Shown here: positions 57,525 through 61,044 of the stretch, one piece after another
Layout: every line of letters begins with the position of its first letter
How positions within the stretch are numbered: position 1 is the stretch's first letter
Assembly (NCBI GenBank): GCA_034521815.1
Contig: JAXHLW010000013.1
Location: 1,376,001 to 1,440,000 of the forward strand
Reading direction: 5' to 3'
Source of the DNA: Trueperaceae bacterium
Lineage (GTDB): Bacteria; Deinococcota; Deinococci; Deinococcales; Trueperaceae
Length of the DNA: 64,000 nt
The notes under the pieces: generated by a model
What the model saw: the letters and a program-made list of their open reading frames with translations, nothing else
Told to the model about the DNA's origin: nothing
Databases searched by the model: none
Program-made: the position numbers and the translations under genes

Positions 57525-58276
57525 GCCGTCCGGGCTCCCGTCGAAGCGGTCGACGCGGCCGTCGCGACGCTGCTGGTCGACGACCATCCCGTCGTCCGGG
57601 CCGGCTTGCGCGCGTACCTCGAGCGCCACGCGGGGCTGCGGATCGTGGGCGAGGTGGACGGCCTGGCGCAAGCCCGCGCGTGGCTCGAGCGGGCTGCGTC
57701 CGGCGAGCACGGCACGACACGTCCCGGTCTCGGCAACGCCGCGTCCGAGCACGCACCGTCCGAGCATGCACCGTCCGAGCCTCCAGAGCTGGTGATCTTG
57801 GACCTGAAGCTCCGCGACGGGGCCGGAACGGAGCTGATCCCCGACGTGCACCGGTTGGCGCCCGGAGCCCGGATCCTGATCCTGTCCAGCTTTCCCGAGG
57901 AGGACGCCGTCCGTGCTGCCATGCGAGCGGGCGCGCACGGTTGGCTGGACAAACAGCAGGACCCGTCGGCTCTGGCCGACGCGGTTCGGGCGTCGCTGCG
58001 CGGCGAGCTGCCGATGGCGGCCGAGGCGGTCCGCGCACTGAGCGCACCACCGCGGAGCGATCCGTTCGACGCGCTCACCCCGCGCGAGCGCCAAGTGCTG
58101 GACGGCATCGCGGACGGCCTGTCCAACCGCGAGATCGCAGGGCGCCTGGGCGTGCGCGAGAAGACCGTCAAGACGCACGCCGGCAGCATCTACACCAAGC
58201 TGGGCGTCGACCGGCGCACGCAGGCCGCCCTGCTGGCACGCGAGCACGGTGCTGCCGGGCCGCACGGGCCCGGTGA
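57521..58276 (+). CDS. NarL/LuxR-family response regulator (apparent frame breaks near both ends)
   Basis: LLVDDHPVVRAGL, LDLKL and LTPRERQVL...GLSNREIA...KTVKTH. The ATGA-coupled start is out of frame with the receiver domain, and the 3' end is inferred. Confidence 0.8.
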   Translation: MSRPGSRRSGRRGRRDAAGRRPSRRPGRLARVPRAPRGAADRGRGGRPGASPRVARAGCVRRARHDTSRSRQRRVRARTVRACTVRASRAGDLGPEAPRRGRNGADPRRAPVGARSPDPDPVQLSRGGRRPCCHASGRARLAGQTAGPVGSGRRGSGVAARRAADGGRGGPRTERTTAERSVRRAHPARAPSAGRHRGRPVQPRDRRAPGRAREDRQDARRQHLHQAGRRPAHAGRPAGTRARCCRAARAR

Positions 58277-58328
58277 GGACGGTCCCAGCGACGACGGGTT
58301 CGGTGGACGACCCAGGCGCTTGAATGCC

Positions 58329-58374
58329 GTCCGCCTGCGACCTTGGTCGCAGGCGGACGCGCGACCAAGGCCCG
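58329..58374. promoter_or_regulatory. Perfect 14-bp inverted repeat GTCCGCCTGCGACC-TT-GGTCGCAGGCGGAC plus a partial second site; candidate response-regulator operator
   Basis: Directly visible between the regulator gene and a small ORF with a strong RBS. Confidence 0.6.
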
Positions 58375-58425
58375 ATGCCCGGCAGGGGCGGGACGACGCA
58401 TCCTTCGAGGCGAAGGAGGCACGCC

Positions 58426-58630
58426 ATGTTCTCGCACCCCGACGTTCTTCTCAGAATCGCCCGATCCACCGTCACCGAGCGCGCCGGCCGTGCCGCGTCG
58501 CGTGCTCGCGCTCGCTCCGCAAGCCCCGAACGCGATCACCCGAGGCCACGAGTCCAGCCACGAGTCCAGCGCCTGGAGCCCGCTCTTCGTCCTTCTTCGT
58601 CAGCTCTCCACGCTGCGAGGAGGCCGGTGA
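58426..58630 (+). CDS. Small basic hypothetical protein (probable internal frameshift)
   Basis: AAGGAGG RBS then MFSHPDVLLRIAR; a plausible C-terminus is in the adjacent frame ending at 58630. Confidence 0.4.
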
Positions 58631-58783
58631 CCGGCTCGACCTGCTGCCGAGCGAGGCGGCCCCCGACCGTCGCCTCGCGCCATCCGGAGCCACGGGAACG
58701 GCGGGCGTCCGAAGACGCCCGCCGAAGCCGCGATCCCGCGAGCACGTGCTGCTCGTACGTGCTGCCCTACGTGCCCGCGCCCG

Positions 58784-59437
58784 TCAGGCGGTCGCGGTCG
58801 TGAGCTCCTGCAGGCGCCGGTAGGCGAGGTCGGCACGCTCGCGCAGCTTCTCGTCCTGGCTGCGGCCCGCCATCATCAGGTGCATGTTCATGTGCTGGTC
58901 GACGTCGCCGAAGATCGAGTTGAGGATCTCGACCTCCTGATTGCTGCGGAGGCTGGCGTCCTCGCGGAACAGCGTGGTGTAGCTGAACTCGAACTGGCGG
59001 TCGTCGATCGCGCCGGACAGGTACTGCTGAAGCACCGTCATGTACGGCGCGAGGTCGCTCTGGTCGCCGGAGCCGGCCGAGACCGCAGCGCCGCCCACCG
59101 GGAGCTGCGCGAACCCTTCGTCCAGCGTGTCGGGCGTGATGTTCCAGTTGTCCACGGCGAACACGGCCTGGCCGTCACGGAACAGGATGACCTGCGGGCT
59201 CTCGTGACGAACCCCCGTCTTCTCGCTCACCAGGTTGCTGGCGGACCGAGCCTCGACCACGCGGATCACGCCGACCATCAGGTCCTCGCGCGGGTCGACC
59301 TTCTCCTGCACGAACCCGAAGCCCTGCATGGTCTTGTGGCACGTGCCGGCCTTGAACACGACGCTGGTCGGGTGGTCGGTCAGGAACGTCTCGACCTCGT
59401 CGGGGCTCGTCAGATTGACGATTCGATCTCTCAGCAT
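58784..59437 (-). CDS. abxC: Monothiol bacilliredoxin BrxC/YtxJ-like with C-terminal helical domain (AbxC-type)
   Basis: TCHKT active-site motif, VRHESPQV, helical C-terminal extension, GGAGG RBS. Confidence 0.8.
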   Translation of the reverse strand: MLRDRIVNLTSPDEVETFLTDHPTSVVFKAGTCHKTMQGFGFVQEKVDPREDLMVGVIRVVEARSASNLVSEKTGVRHESPQVILFRDGQAVFAVDNWNITPDTLDEGFAQLPVGGAAVSAGSGDQSDLAPYMTVLQQYLSGAIDDRQFEFSYTTLFREDASLRSNQEVEILNSIFGDVDQHMNMHLMMAGRSQDEKLRERADLAYRRLQELTTATA

Positions 59438-59609
59438 AGGTCCTCCCTCTCGTGGGCATCGTACAGATAGGGACGCGCGTAACGATGTCGCCGAAACGGC
59501 AATTCCGAGCGGAGCGCTCGGAACCGCACGGCGTCGTAGCCGGCTCGCGGCCCGCGCGGCACCCGACTCGCAGGCGACGCCAGCGCCCGATGGAGGCTCG
59601 CTGTCCGTA

Positions 59610-59782
59610 TCTCCGAGGGCGCGGCCTCCTCCGCGCCACCTCCTGACCGGCGGCCCACGCCCGCCGGCGCCGCGGAGGCAAAGGGGACGCACGTCCTCGG
59701 GAGACGCACGTCCAGCACCGACTTCGAGCCCATCGCCGGGCTCGCGAGCGTGGGTCGCGACCCGAAGCGACGAGGACTCGAC
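59610..59782 (+). ncRNA. Candidate structured cis-regulatory RNA leader with a kissing loop or pseudoknot
   Basis: Nested stems; hairpin loop CCCACGC (59654-59660) is complementary to hairpin loop GCGTGGG (59748-59754); the structure ends at the RBS. Confidence 0.6.
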
Positions 59783-61044
59783 ATGACCAAGCAGAAGACG
59801 TTCAAGAAGCGCGTGCGCGCACGGATGGACAAGACCGGCGAGCGGTACGCCGCCGCGCGCCGCCGCCTCCTGCCCGAGGTAAGCGACGGGGACGGCACGG
59901 ACCGCTCGACCAGCGGCGGTGTCCATCCCGCCACGACGGCCTTCCGGCTACTGCTCGACCACGCGGGACACGACCTCTCGGAGGCGTCGCTGCTCGTCGC
60001 AGGTGGAGGCGTCGGCATCGGCGTGTTCGCGTTCCACTACCCGGAGTTCTCGACGCTGTTCCTCGCCGGGCGGCATCTGTGGCACGACGACCTGGCGTTC
60101 TTGCAGGGCTTGGCCGAACGACTGGGCGCGACGCTCGACGTGCGCCGAGACCGGCGGCGCGAAGAAGGCCCGCACCGACCTCCTCGAGATGGTCGAGCGG
60201 GGACCGGTCGTGGCGTTCGTCGACCTCGGCACGCTGGGGCACCGCGGCGGGGTCGAGGCGTACTACGTCGTCGTCGTGCTGGACGTGGACGTCGAGACGG
60301 GCACCGCCCGGATCGCCGACCTGGCCGCGCAGCCGATCGACGTTCCGCTGGACACGCTGATGGCGGCACGCGCCCAAGCACCGCGGATTCGAGGACCCGG
60401 CTGCTGCGCCTCGACACCGCACCCGACGCGATCGACGTCGCGGCTGCCGCCCGCGCGGGCATCCGCGCTTGCATCGACGGCTTCGACGATCCACCCATGC
60501 GTGGCAGCAACTTCCGCGTGGACGGGCTCGACGCCCTCGCCAAACGCATGCGCGGTGGCGGCGAGGACGCGTGGAGCGAGGTGTTCCCCCTGGACCGCGT
60601 CTCTGGGCCGCCCTCGGGTCGTTCTACGAGTACGTCCAGCACTACGGCAGCGGAGGCGGACTGATGCGGACGTTCTATGCCGAGGCGCTGCGGGAGAACG
60701 GCGCGACCATCGACCTGGACGTCGGGGCTGCCGCCGACGCCTACGCGGCGCTCGGGGCGGCCTGGTCGGACGCCGCTCGCGCCTGCCTCCCTGACGACGT
60801 GCCCGAGCTCGCTGCGCTCGCTGCGACGATCGACGAGATCTACGACGTGTACCTGGCGCGCGGGACCGACGCGAACGAGGAGCTGGAAGCGCTGCGGGCG
60901 CGGCGGTCCGAGATCGACCAGGGCCCGTTCCCGCTGTCCGTGGCCGCGACGAGCGAGCTGGTGCACGAGCTCGCCGATCGGGTGGACGCCCTGGCGAGCC
61001 TCGAGCGGGAGGCGGTCGAGACGCTCCGGGATATCGGCGCCTGA
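59783..61044 (+). CDS. Basic N-terminal KTGERY module fused to a BtrH_N/DUF4872-like domain (at least three frameshifts)
   Basis: MTKQKTFKKRVRARMDKTGERYAAARRRLL; HPATTAF...LSEASLLVAGGG; GSGGGLMRTFYAEAL. The pieces lie in three frames with breaks at about 60145, 60380 and 60590. Confidence 0.7.

Follow-up and report, generated by a model that had tools for sequence, protein, structure and literature searches.

A structured mRNA leader with a kissing loop, found together with a short N-terminal peptide ahead of unrelated bacterial genes

Cobalamin riboswitches (RF00174) control translation through a loop-loop contact between their sensing domain and a downstream hairpin in which the ribosome-binding site lies. 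The downstream-peptide or glutamine-II motif (RF01704) of cyanobacteria is pseudoknotted and first drew notice through the short conserved peptide that invariably follows it; this peptide is a whole small protein and the ligand is glutamine. Here we describe a 5' untranslated leader with features of both, found in a 64,000-nucleotide (nt) stretch of the genome of a Trueperaceae bacterium (contig JAXHLW010000013.1, positions 1,376,001 to 1,440,000; this whole stretch is called the window below, and all coordinates count from its first base). The leader (59618-59782, forward strand) precedes a gene that begins with the ATG at 59783 and whose first 30 codons encode a basic peptide module, which we also call the tag. 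To judge from its sequence relatives, it belongs to a large, widespread and apparently undescribed family of folded mRNA leaders, which we found 5' of about 150 genes under many phylum labels.

Like the cobalamin riboswitches, this leader makes a kissing contact between an upstream loop and a downstream hairpin that holds the ribosome-binding site; unlike them, it has another core, stands before genes without a cobalamin link and is tied to an N-terminal peptide. With the glutamine-II riboswitch it shares a pseudoknotted leader and a conserved short peptide encoded right after it, but here the peptide is a 30-residue tag on unrelated proteins of 210-470 residues under many phylum labels. The guanidine-II riboswitch (mini-ykkC, RF01068) has a pair of similar small hairpins, each capped by an ACGR tetraloop. 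It resembles the present leader in the loop-loop contact between two of its hairpins, but here those loops are 7 nt long and fully complementary within a five-helix fold, and ACGR tetraloops are absent. Neither the window nor 36 related loci matched RF00174, RF01068 or RF01704 in scans with Rfam 15.

Autogenous control is known from ribosomal-protein leaders and threonyl-tRNA synthetase, to which phage lambda N with its boxB may be added. Under the reading that we favour, the protein encoded here would also bind a folded element of its own leader near the ribosome-binding site and, as in the arginine-rich motifs, RNA binding would fall to a short basic helical peptide. In the known systems RNA binding is part of the main function of the protein, whereas here the tag and its putative RNA target would move as a cassette from one unrelated gene to another. 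Another comparison is with Rop/Rom, a helical-hairpin protein that recognises by shape, and stabilises, the 7-base-pair (bp) loop-loop helix between RNA I and RNA II in ColE1 copy control. The present leader also has a 7-bp loop-loop helix and the module is predicted to be a small helical hairpin, a likeness for which no homology is claimed: Rop is an acidic-to-neutral dimeric four-helix bundle that acts on two RNAs, whereas the module is strongly basic and fused to a protein, and both loops lie in one mRNA. In the full-text literature we found no leader RNA that is inherited with a short N-terminal peptide across unrelated families, although the supplements of RNA-motif surveys might list the motif. 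The element is a cis-acting structured leader, probably under autogenous control, and its new feature is a portable RNA-plus-peptide unit common to unrelated genes.

A conserved and covarying five-helix leader

A preliminary description of this locus, made from the letters of the window, had proposed a densely folding leader that forms a unit with the peptide module or is an unknown riboswitch or ribozyme. Scanning window positions 58500-61000 with the 4227 models of Rfam 15 (cmscan, E <= 10) gave only chance-level matches, none of them near its gathering score; the sole match inside the leader was HOTTIP_1 at 59738-59784, with 16.2 bits against a gathering score of 50. The same models returned one unrelated match elsewhere in 19 related loci at E <= 0.1, and only a tRNA elsewhere in 17 further loci of all body classes at E <= 1, so that no characterised family was matched. 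Nor does the leader fold beyond chance when taken singly: its minimum free energy is -88.1 kcal/mol, compared with -82.6 +/- 4.15 kcal/mol for 200 dinucleotide shuffles (z -1.32), 17 of which fold equally well, and the opposite strand gives z -0.66. On single-sequence folding and the lack of an Rfam match alone the finding would have been dismissed; comparison among relatives changed the verdict.

Homologues of the first 110 residues of the encoded protein are present in 4 of 60 related genomes, and the leaders, from three genera, have long blocks in common. When an alignment of three orthologues was used as the query against one genome per species, 80 BtrH-like loci were returned, with titles naming Acidobacteriota, Chloroflexota, Gemmatimonadota, Planctomycetota, Bacteroidota, Actinomycetota, Trueperaceae, Myxococcota, Dormibacterota and others. 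A covariance model, R1, was built from 57 leaders; it finds one copy in the window's own genome. The conserved upstream structure that the preliminary description had called for among homologues is present in this family, and its order is a -10 box, helix P1, helix P2 enclosing P3, an AAA, P4, a variable linker and a long P5 hairpin with the ribosome-binding site.

The pairs were placed by RNAalifold, which gave 18 pairs in the 57 leaders with compensatory changes in 11, together with counts of the paired bases. In the window, on the forward strand, P1 is a hairpin at 59618-59637 in which GGCGCGG (59618-59624) pairs with CCGCGCC (59631-59637) around the loop CCUCCU. P2 (59639-59678) joins CCUCC at 59639-59643 to GGAGG at 59674-59678 and encloses P3, a hairpin at 59647-59667 whose arms CCGGCGG (59647-59653) and CCGCCGG (59661-59667) close the 7-nt loop L3, CCCACGC (59654-59660). 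A C-AAA junction, the P4 hairpin (GGGGA at 59683-59687, loop CGCACG, UCCUC at 59694-59698) and a GGG follow in 59679-59701. P5, a long imperfect hairpin at 59724-59781 (59724-59747 with 59755-59781), ends in the 7-nt terminal loop L5, GCGUGGG (59748-59754). The most conserved stretch of the family, AAAGGGGA, lies in most loci about 100-135 nt 5' of the start codon.

Nearly all leaders have the P1 core GGCG/CGCC; three of its pairs are unchanged in 113-114 of the 114 leaders of the alignment described below, and the outer pair is GC in 107 and CG in 4, the CG variant being that of the window and its genus. P2 has both-side changes at all 5 pairs (for example UA 63 and CG 40), with 98.1% of alignment cells paired in the 114 leaders, and P3 has them at all 6 modelled pairs, with 94.4% paired. 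One P4 pair is GC in 68, AU in 25 and GU in 15 of these leaders and another is AU in 56 and GC in 41; a further P4 position is a G-U pair in 109 of the 114, so that the structure belongs to RNA of the coding strand.

Pairing was compared with shuffled controls in three sets. In 68 metagenome leaders outside the model, 95.7% of cells pair compared with 80.0 +/- 0.7 in shuffles, and double-change cells number 164 compared with 46.6 (0 of 500 shuffles reached this); controls in which the partner was slid along pair in 33-51%. The genome leaders gave a similar pairing result. Since both of these alignments had been fitted to the covariance model, we also used a plain, structure-blind MAFFT alignment of 114 non-redundant full leaders, from which exact duplicates, minus-strand or truncated matches, and leaders with more than 100 nt between model end and start codon had been dropped. 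With the loop-loop helix included as a pseudoknot, 94.9% of its cells pair against 79.8% when shuffled, and 454 double-change cells stand against 135 (0 of 500). We conclude that the fold from P1 to P5 is conserved and covaries across the leader sequences.

The preliminary description had instead placed an outer stem (59610-59621 with 59692-59704) and an inner stem (59628-59635 with 59671-59678) around this region. Comparison does not bear these out: in 59 leaders 52.5% of their cells are paired as against 51.8% when shuffled, 85 of 500 shuffles are as high, the covariation score is 0.123 compared with 0.124, and the bases concerned fall in P1, P2 and P4.

Reading the sequence did confirm two hairpins with exactly complementary 7-nt loops, at 59647-59667 (P3, above) and at 59742-59760, where TCGCGA arms flank GCGTGGG, the tip of P5; CCCACGC and GCGTGGG are exact reverse complements. 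In the orthologous leaders of the three genera, one has changed in both loops, to CCTACGC and GCGTAGG, so that they are still complementary. Thirteen L3 classes were seen in all, among them CCCACGC/GCGTGGG, CCTGCGC/GCGCAGG, CCTACGC/GCGTAGG and CCCCAGC/GCTGGGG. An alignment-free test looked for the exact Watson-Crick complement of each leader's own L3 between P4 and the start codon. It was present in 48 of 57 genome loci, compared with 24 of 684 trials with the L3 of another class and 389 of 11400 with shuffled downstream sequence; in the metagenome loci the figures are 56 of 65 and 16 of 520. Seven of twelve metagenome exceptions carry the U-G wobble CUCACGC with GCGUGGG, and the rest are other wobbles or alignment slips. 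In the MAFFT alignment 89.3% of the cells of the kissing helix are paired even though L5 is misplaced in 23 rows (20 DUF1835-like leaders together with L085, L086 and L094). L5 starts 34-52 nt 5' of the start codon and, in the leaders that were folded under constraint, is the terminal loop of the long hairpin P5. These sequence comparisons show that the two loops form a covarying loop-loop helix, and the loop pair is conserved irrespective of the fused domain, as had been anticipated. A supposition that copies within one genome would differ in their kissing sequence held only in part: two BtrH-type leaders of one genome have (C/U)CCACGC in common, and its DUF1835 and DUF4287 copies differ.

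The signals for transcription and translation lie at the two ends of the fold. A TANNNT hexamer occurs at -16 to -5 relative to the first base of P1 in 102 of 119 non-redundant leaders, beginning at -13 in 61 and at -12 in 20. Because this -10 box stands at a fixed distance before P1, transcripts are predicted to begin just 5' of P1. In the window the hexamer at the usual place is TATCTC (59608-59613, forward strand), in which the final T is absent. At the other end, the Shine-Dalgarno sequence GAGGA (59772-59776, forward strand) lies in the 3' arm of P5 and pairs with CCC of the 5' arm. The location of the ribosome-binding site in this arm is shown by the comparison, and its closure is a prediction from energy folds: the stretch from -15 to -5, which includes the Shine-Dalgarno sequence, has a mean predicted pairing of 0.72 compared with 0.57 in controls, and 66 of 109 leaders have it paired to 70% or more, compared with 170 of 545 controls.

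Two smaller points of the preliminary description concern a pairing with the ribosome-binding site and a direct repeat. A pairing of GTCC with GGAC at the ribosome-binding site has its basis in the sequence, since CGAGGAC (59771-59777), within which the GAGGA lies, is the complement of GTCCTCG (59693-59699). A direct repeat given as 11 nt exists and is longer than stated: GACGCACGTCC spans 14 nt, at 59683-59696 and 59700-59713, with 93% identity, the second copy (GGAGACGCACGUCC, forward strand) being a local duplication of the P4 sequence. Among the aligned leaders this tandem repeat occurs only in the window and its same-genus orthologue, and two leaders from other genera are without it.

The N-terminal peptide and its coupling to the RNA

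The module, MTKQKTFKKRVRARMDKTGERYAAARRRLL, occupies 59783-59872 on the forward strand and is followed by a disordered linker to about 59920. Its consensus is MTxxKxxKxxVRxRMxKTGExYxxAR. Over the first 33 residues the mean column identity is 71% in 39 sequences from many phylum labels, far above the rest of the protein, and M1, T2, K8, R12, R14, M15, G19, E20, Y22, A25 and R26 are invariant in all 39; in a whole-protein alignment of 28 BtrH-like proteins with the module, residues 1-26 hold 10 of the 22 invariant columns. Several synonymous codons serve for the invariant residues (R12 is CGC in 96, CGT in 25, CGG in 21, AGG in 3, CGA in 2 and AGA in 1), so selection acts on the peptide and not on the RNA that encodes it.

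An AlphaFold2 model of the same-genus orthologue (mean predicted local distance difference test score, pLDDT, 89.1) places a helix at residues 4-18, a turn K-x-G-E, and a second helix at 22-29; residues 31-44 form a linker of pLDDT below 50, predicted to be disordered, and the body reaches about 95. This orthologue model agrees with the discrete helical module and linker of the preliminary description. The BtrH-like body that it placed behind them is present in the window, but in four frame pieces (below). As to origin, a likeness of the module to ribosomal protein L34 (RARMxxKxG...ARRR) was not supported by profile comparison; descent from L34 (PF00468) was rejected, since hhalign against the genome's own L34 gave a probability of 2.2% over 9 aligned columns. 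A search of the ESM Atlas with residues 1-36 of a DUF4287-type carrier offered no lead, its best score of 0.78 being a 'hypothetical protein'.

The module is widespread. A profile search of 1.84 billion representative proteins recovered 3883 clusters at 50% identity (E <= 0.001), and in most of the 150 best matches listed the module begins at residue 1; its offset in some database proteins fits start codons that were called too early. Among the 75 of these 150 best matches that are at least 140 residues long, Pfam assigned BtrH_N to 30, DUF4872 to 16, DUF4287 to 6, AHSA1 and WD40 to 3 each, and Peptidase_M1, FGE-sulfatase and PG_binding_1 to 1 each. That such N-termini occur on diverse proteins had been suggested for actinobacteria; the diversity is borne out, and the phylum label was too narrow.

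At the BtrH-like genome loci R1 matches 5' of 70 of the 80, although 56 of these 70 are in its seed and match by construction. Two of the ten loci without a match, L012 and L034, have at most 50 nt of upstream DNA, and the other eight lack the first 11-52 residues of the protein; at these homologues, whose protein match starts without the peptide, R1 finds the RNA in 0 of 8. A sample of 364 genomes from the window's phylum contains the module in 19 and the RNA at 13 of 17 new loci. Of the four that lack it, L104 and L105 are DUF4287/AHSA1-like genes whose modules are degenerate (E 3e-6 and 8e-4), a third has only 74 nt of DNA before the gene and the last matches weakly and in part. L094, a DUF4287/AHSA1 protein, has a leader with the kissing pair CCCCGGC/GCCGGGG.

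Searching metagenomes by the module alone returned 80 loci, whose bodies were by blastp 46 DUF4287/AHSA1-like, 4 BtrH-like, 24 of a family of about 373 residues, and 6 too short to place. The 24 members of the third group have a common start, and the four that were scanned gave DUF1835 at 16.7-35.5 bits, two of them above the cut-off of 21.1. Of these loci, 71 have 169 nt or more of DNA before the gene, and R1 recognises a leader at 69 of them, 63-178 nt before the start and in all but two within 90. At L141 the gene lies directly 3' of another open reading frame and a leader remnant is left, and at L158 only the AAAGGGGA core is left; these two loci are possible natural 'RNA-less' variants.

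The converse searches began from the RNA alone. In 128 genomes of the window's family there were 10 matches, and all 9 solid ones precede module genes; the tenth (genome G359, E 0.008) lies inside the coding region of a LuxR-type response regulator and was taken as a false positive. In five large genomes each of 12 matches is followed by a module 64-95 nt later, on four body types (two BtrH-like, DUF4287 and DUF1835-like), with at most 3 copies per genome. Together the RNA-first searches gave a peptide after 21 of 21 significant matches. An all-against-all blastp of 489 upstream open reading frame pieces showed no conserved upstream neighbour, the clusters comprising at most 5 loci from close relatives.

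These comparisons of gene sequences show that the leader goes with the N-terminal peptide and not with the BtrH-like body, and that the pair stands before at least three unrelated bodies. The RNA and the 30-residue module had been proposed to form a portable unit, and the same pair is indeed found before BtrH_N/DUF4872, DUF4287/AHSA1 and DUF1835-like proteins.

Two further observations concern individual loci. L199-L210 lie in large actinomycete genomes that have up to three leader-plus-module genes with different bodies. At L004 (1380-1500), in one related genome, about 114 nt are inserted after the leader's ATG-ACC. The insertion makes a 38-codon upstream open reading frame, which comes first behind the leader and ends in a stop codon that overlaps the module's GTG start codon (GTGA).

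The gene body and neighbourhood in the window

In the window the leader and the peptide module are both intact. The gene that they head, of the BtrH_N/DUF4872 type (59783-61044, forward strand), lies in four frame pieces; the reading frame changes near 60146, 60380-60391 and 60589, and the change near 60589 falls within a run of C. The pieces are seen in the G+C content of third codon positions per frame, in the DNA alignment and by tblastn, which with the same-genus orthologue (intact, 431 residues) places residues 1-124, 97-201, 206-271 and 271-421 in different frames. The first piece matches BtrH_N (PF14399) at 22.6 bits (E 1.4e-4; cut-off 29.7), covering only 1-78 of the 134 profile positions because the frame breaks, and intact relatives score 38.0-58.1 bits. 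The last piece matches DUF4872 (PF16169) at 34.7 bits (cut-off 28), compared with 47.6-62.3 in relatives. The gene may be a pseudogene or decaying copy, to which the incomplete -10 hexamer may also point, or the assembly may contain small insertion or deletion errors.

The body of the orthologue model has a fold like AziU3/U2, CcbD and CtaG (Foldseek E 1.7e-8 to 1e-5), which are BtrH-like enzymes. In the alignment of the 28 module-bearing BtrH-like proteins none of the 22 invariant columns is Cys or His, although the closest solved folds, CcbD and CtaG, were deposited with Cys/His/Asp variants. To judge from the alignment, the module-bearing subfamily may do without that Cys/His/Asp catalytic set.

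The leader lies in a 345-nt gap between two diverging genes. The neighbour on the minus strand (58784-59437, with its start near 59437) encodes two domains that are seldom combined, BrxC monothiol bacilliredoxin (82.3 bits) and colicin-immunity-like (28 bits), and the same neighbour is present at the orthologous locus of the same genus. At 57606-58823 the window has a LuxR-type response-regulator open reading frame of 405 residues, the last 180 or so of which look out-of-frame or low in complexity; this odd end could be another sign of small assembly indels.

Possible mechanisms and their meaning

It is close to certain that a real cis-acting structured leader is coupled to the peptide. How the two act together can be argued from the distribution just described: of all that the regulated genes encode, only the peptide is constant, and it decays or is absent where the RNA is lost or absent, which makes it the most likely ligand. 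We favour, at close to an even chance on the sequence evidence, a mechanism of autogenous control in which the peptide binds the RNA directly. The kissing helix would clamp P5 to the 5' domain and so keep the ribosome-binding site closed. The ligand would be the N-terminal peptide of the encoded protein, either in the finished protein or as it leaves the ribosome that translates this mRNA; its target would be an invariant feature of the leader, such as the P1 GGCG/CGCC stem, the AAAGG or the kissing complex, and this recognition would set the translation of the peptide's own message.

The same leader and peptide ahead of unrelated proteins suggest, moreover, a self-contained RNA-peptide control unit. 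In its fullest form this proposal, which we advance tentatively and at somewhat under an even chance, is that the promoter, the kissing-loop leader of about 165 nt and the 30-codon basic tag make up a portable cassette with its own feedback loop, in which the tag would recognise the leader or the 7-bp loop-loop helix and gate the ribosome-binding site, possibly while tethered to the ribosome.

Several points weigh against direct binding by the peptide. Invariant unpaired bases, the AAAGG and GAC, are also expected of a small-molecule pocket or an RNA tertiary contact. The coupling could come from joint transfer of the 5' end and not from physical contact. When Pfam was searched with the module alone no RNA-binding family was recognised, the only match being TetR_C_30 at E 0.12, and confidence in the module's predicted structure is moderate, with block mean pLDDT values of 63, 78 and 65 for residues 1-10, 11-20 and 21-30. 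The closed ribosome-binding site rests on energy folds with a moderate contrast to controls. Loci L141 and L158 keep the peptide with a truncated or partial leader, and the window copy itself, with a frameshifted body and a -10 box without its final T, may be inactive.

The strongest rival, unlikely in our judgement but to be taken seriously, is that the leader works as a riboswitch that senses a small molecule or an ion, or binds another trans-acting factor, and that the peptide has a task of its own, for instance to hold the protein to nucleic acid or to the ribosome; RNA and peptide would then co-travel in an exchanged 5' block that runs from the promoter through the leader into the first codons. 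In architecture it is like a translational riboswitch, with a multi-helix 5' domain, invariant junction bases and a kissing loop to the ribosome-binding-site hairpin; the peptide's lack of a recognised RNA-binding family points the same way, and at most three leaders per genome on different genes fit a one-signal regulon. Against it, the bodies (BtrH_N/DUF4872, DUF4287/AHSA1 and DUF1835-like) have no recognisable common function while the peptide stays constant. The perfect record of the RNA-first searches and the absence of the RNA from all eight peptide-less homologues also argue against it, as do the degenerate modules that accompany lost RNA, and passive hitch-hiking would not hold 11 residues invariant through synonymous change.

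Improbable, in our view, is a ribosome-coupled mechanism in cis, by which the nascent peptide pauses the ribosome or recruits a factor and the leader senses ribosome traffic without direct contact. The position of the module at residue 1 in most matches, with M1-T2 invariant, would suit such a device, as would the modelled linker of residues 31-44, which is roughly as long as the ribosome exit tunnel. Known arrest peptides, however, control a separate gene that lies 3' of their own, and the module is predicted to form a two-helix hairpin that stands apart from the body.

A DNA-level explanation, in which the basic module acts as a helix-turn-helix autorepressor and the tandem 14-nt repeat is its operator, is very improbable and close to refuted. 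The module is basic and two-helical, and the repeat has inner dyad symmetry (59683-59713) and lies just 3' of the promoter. But it is pairing rather than sequence that is conserved, through hundreds of double changes; G-U pairs, which on DNA are mismatches of the other strand, are frequent, both in P4 (the 109 of 114 above) and as U-G in the kissing helix; and, among the aligned leaders, the repeat was seen only in the window and its same-genus orthologue.

We attach equally little weight to the idea that the RNA has an independent function, either as a ribozyme that cleaves itself or as a stable small RNA set free from the 5' end. Small ribozymes typically have compact, pseudoknotted folds in which the junction bases are invariant, and the promoter here is set for an RNA that starts at P1. 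No Rfam ribozyme or small RNA was matched, however, the fold extends into the ribosome-binding site and keeps a fixed spacing to the start codon, and the coupling to the peptide would go unexplained. Chance folding of G+C-rich intergenic DNA, to which the shuffle result for the single sequence (z -1.32, 17 of 200) might have pointed, has a negligible probability and is refuted by covariation and by recurrence under many phylum labels.

A new structured RNA family, with five helices and a covarying 7-bp kissing loop and absent from Rfam 15, is thus strongly supported. If the proposed control by the peptide is true, the finding would bring to light a novel class of RNA-binding peptides and, under many bacterial phylum labels, a novel gene-control logic in which any protein fused behind the tag would gain the same translational homeostasis. 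Should the binding hold, the unit would also be a compact natural part for synthetic translation control, and would give a handle on thousands of functionally unassigned proteins (DUF4872, DUF4287 and DUF1835).

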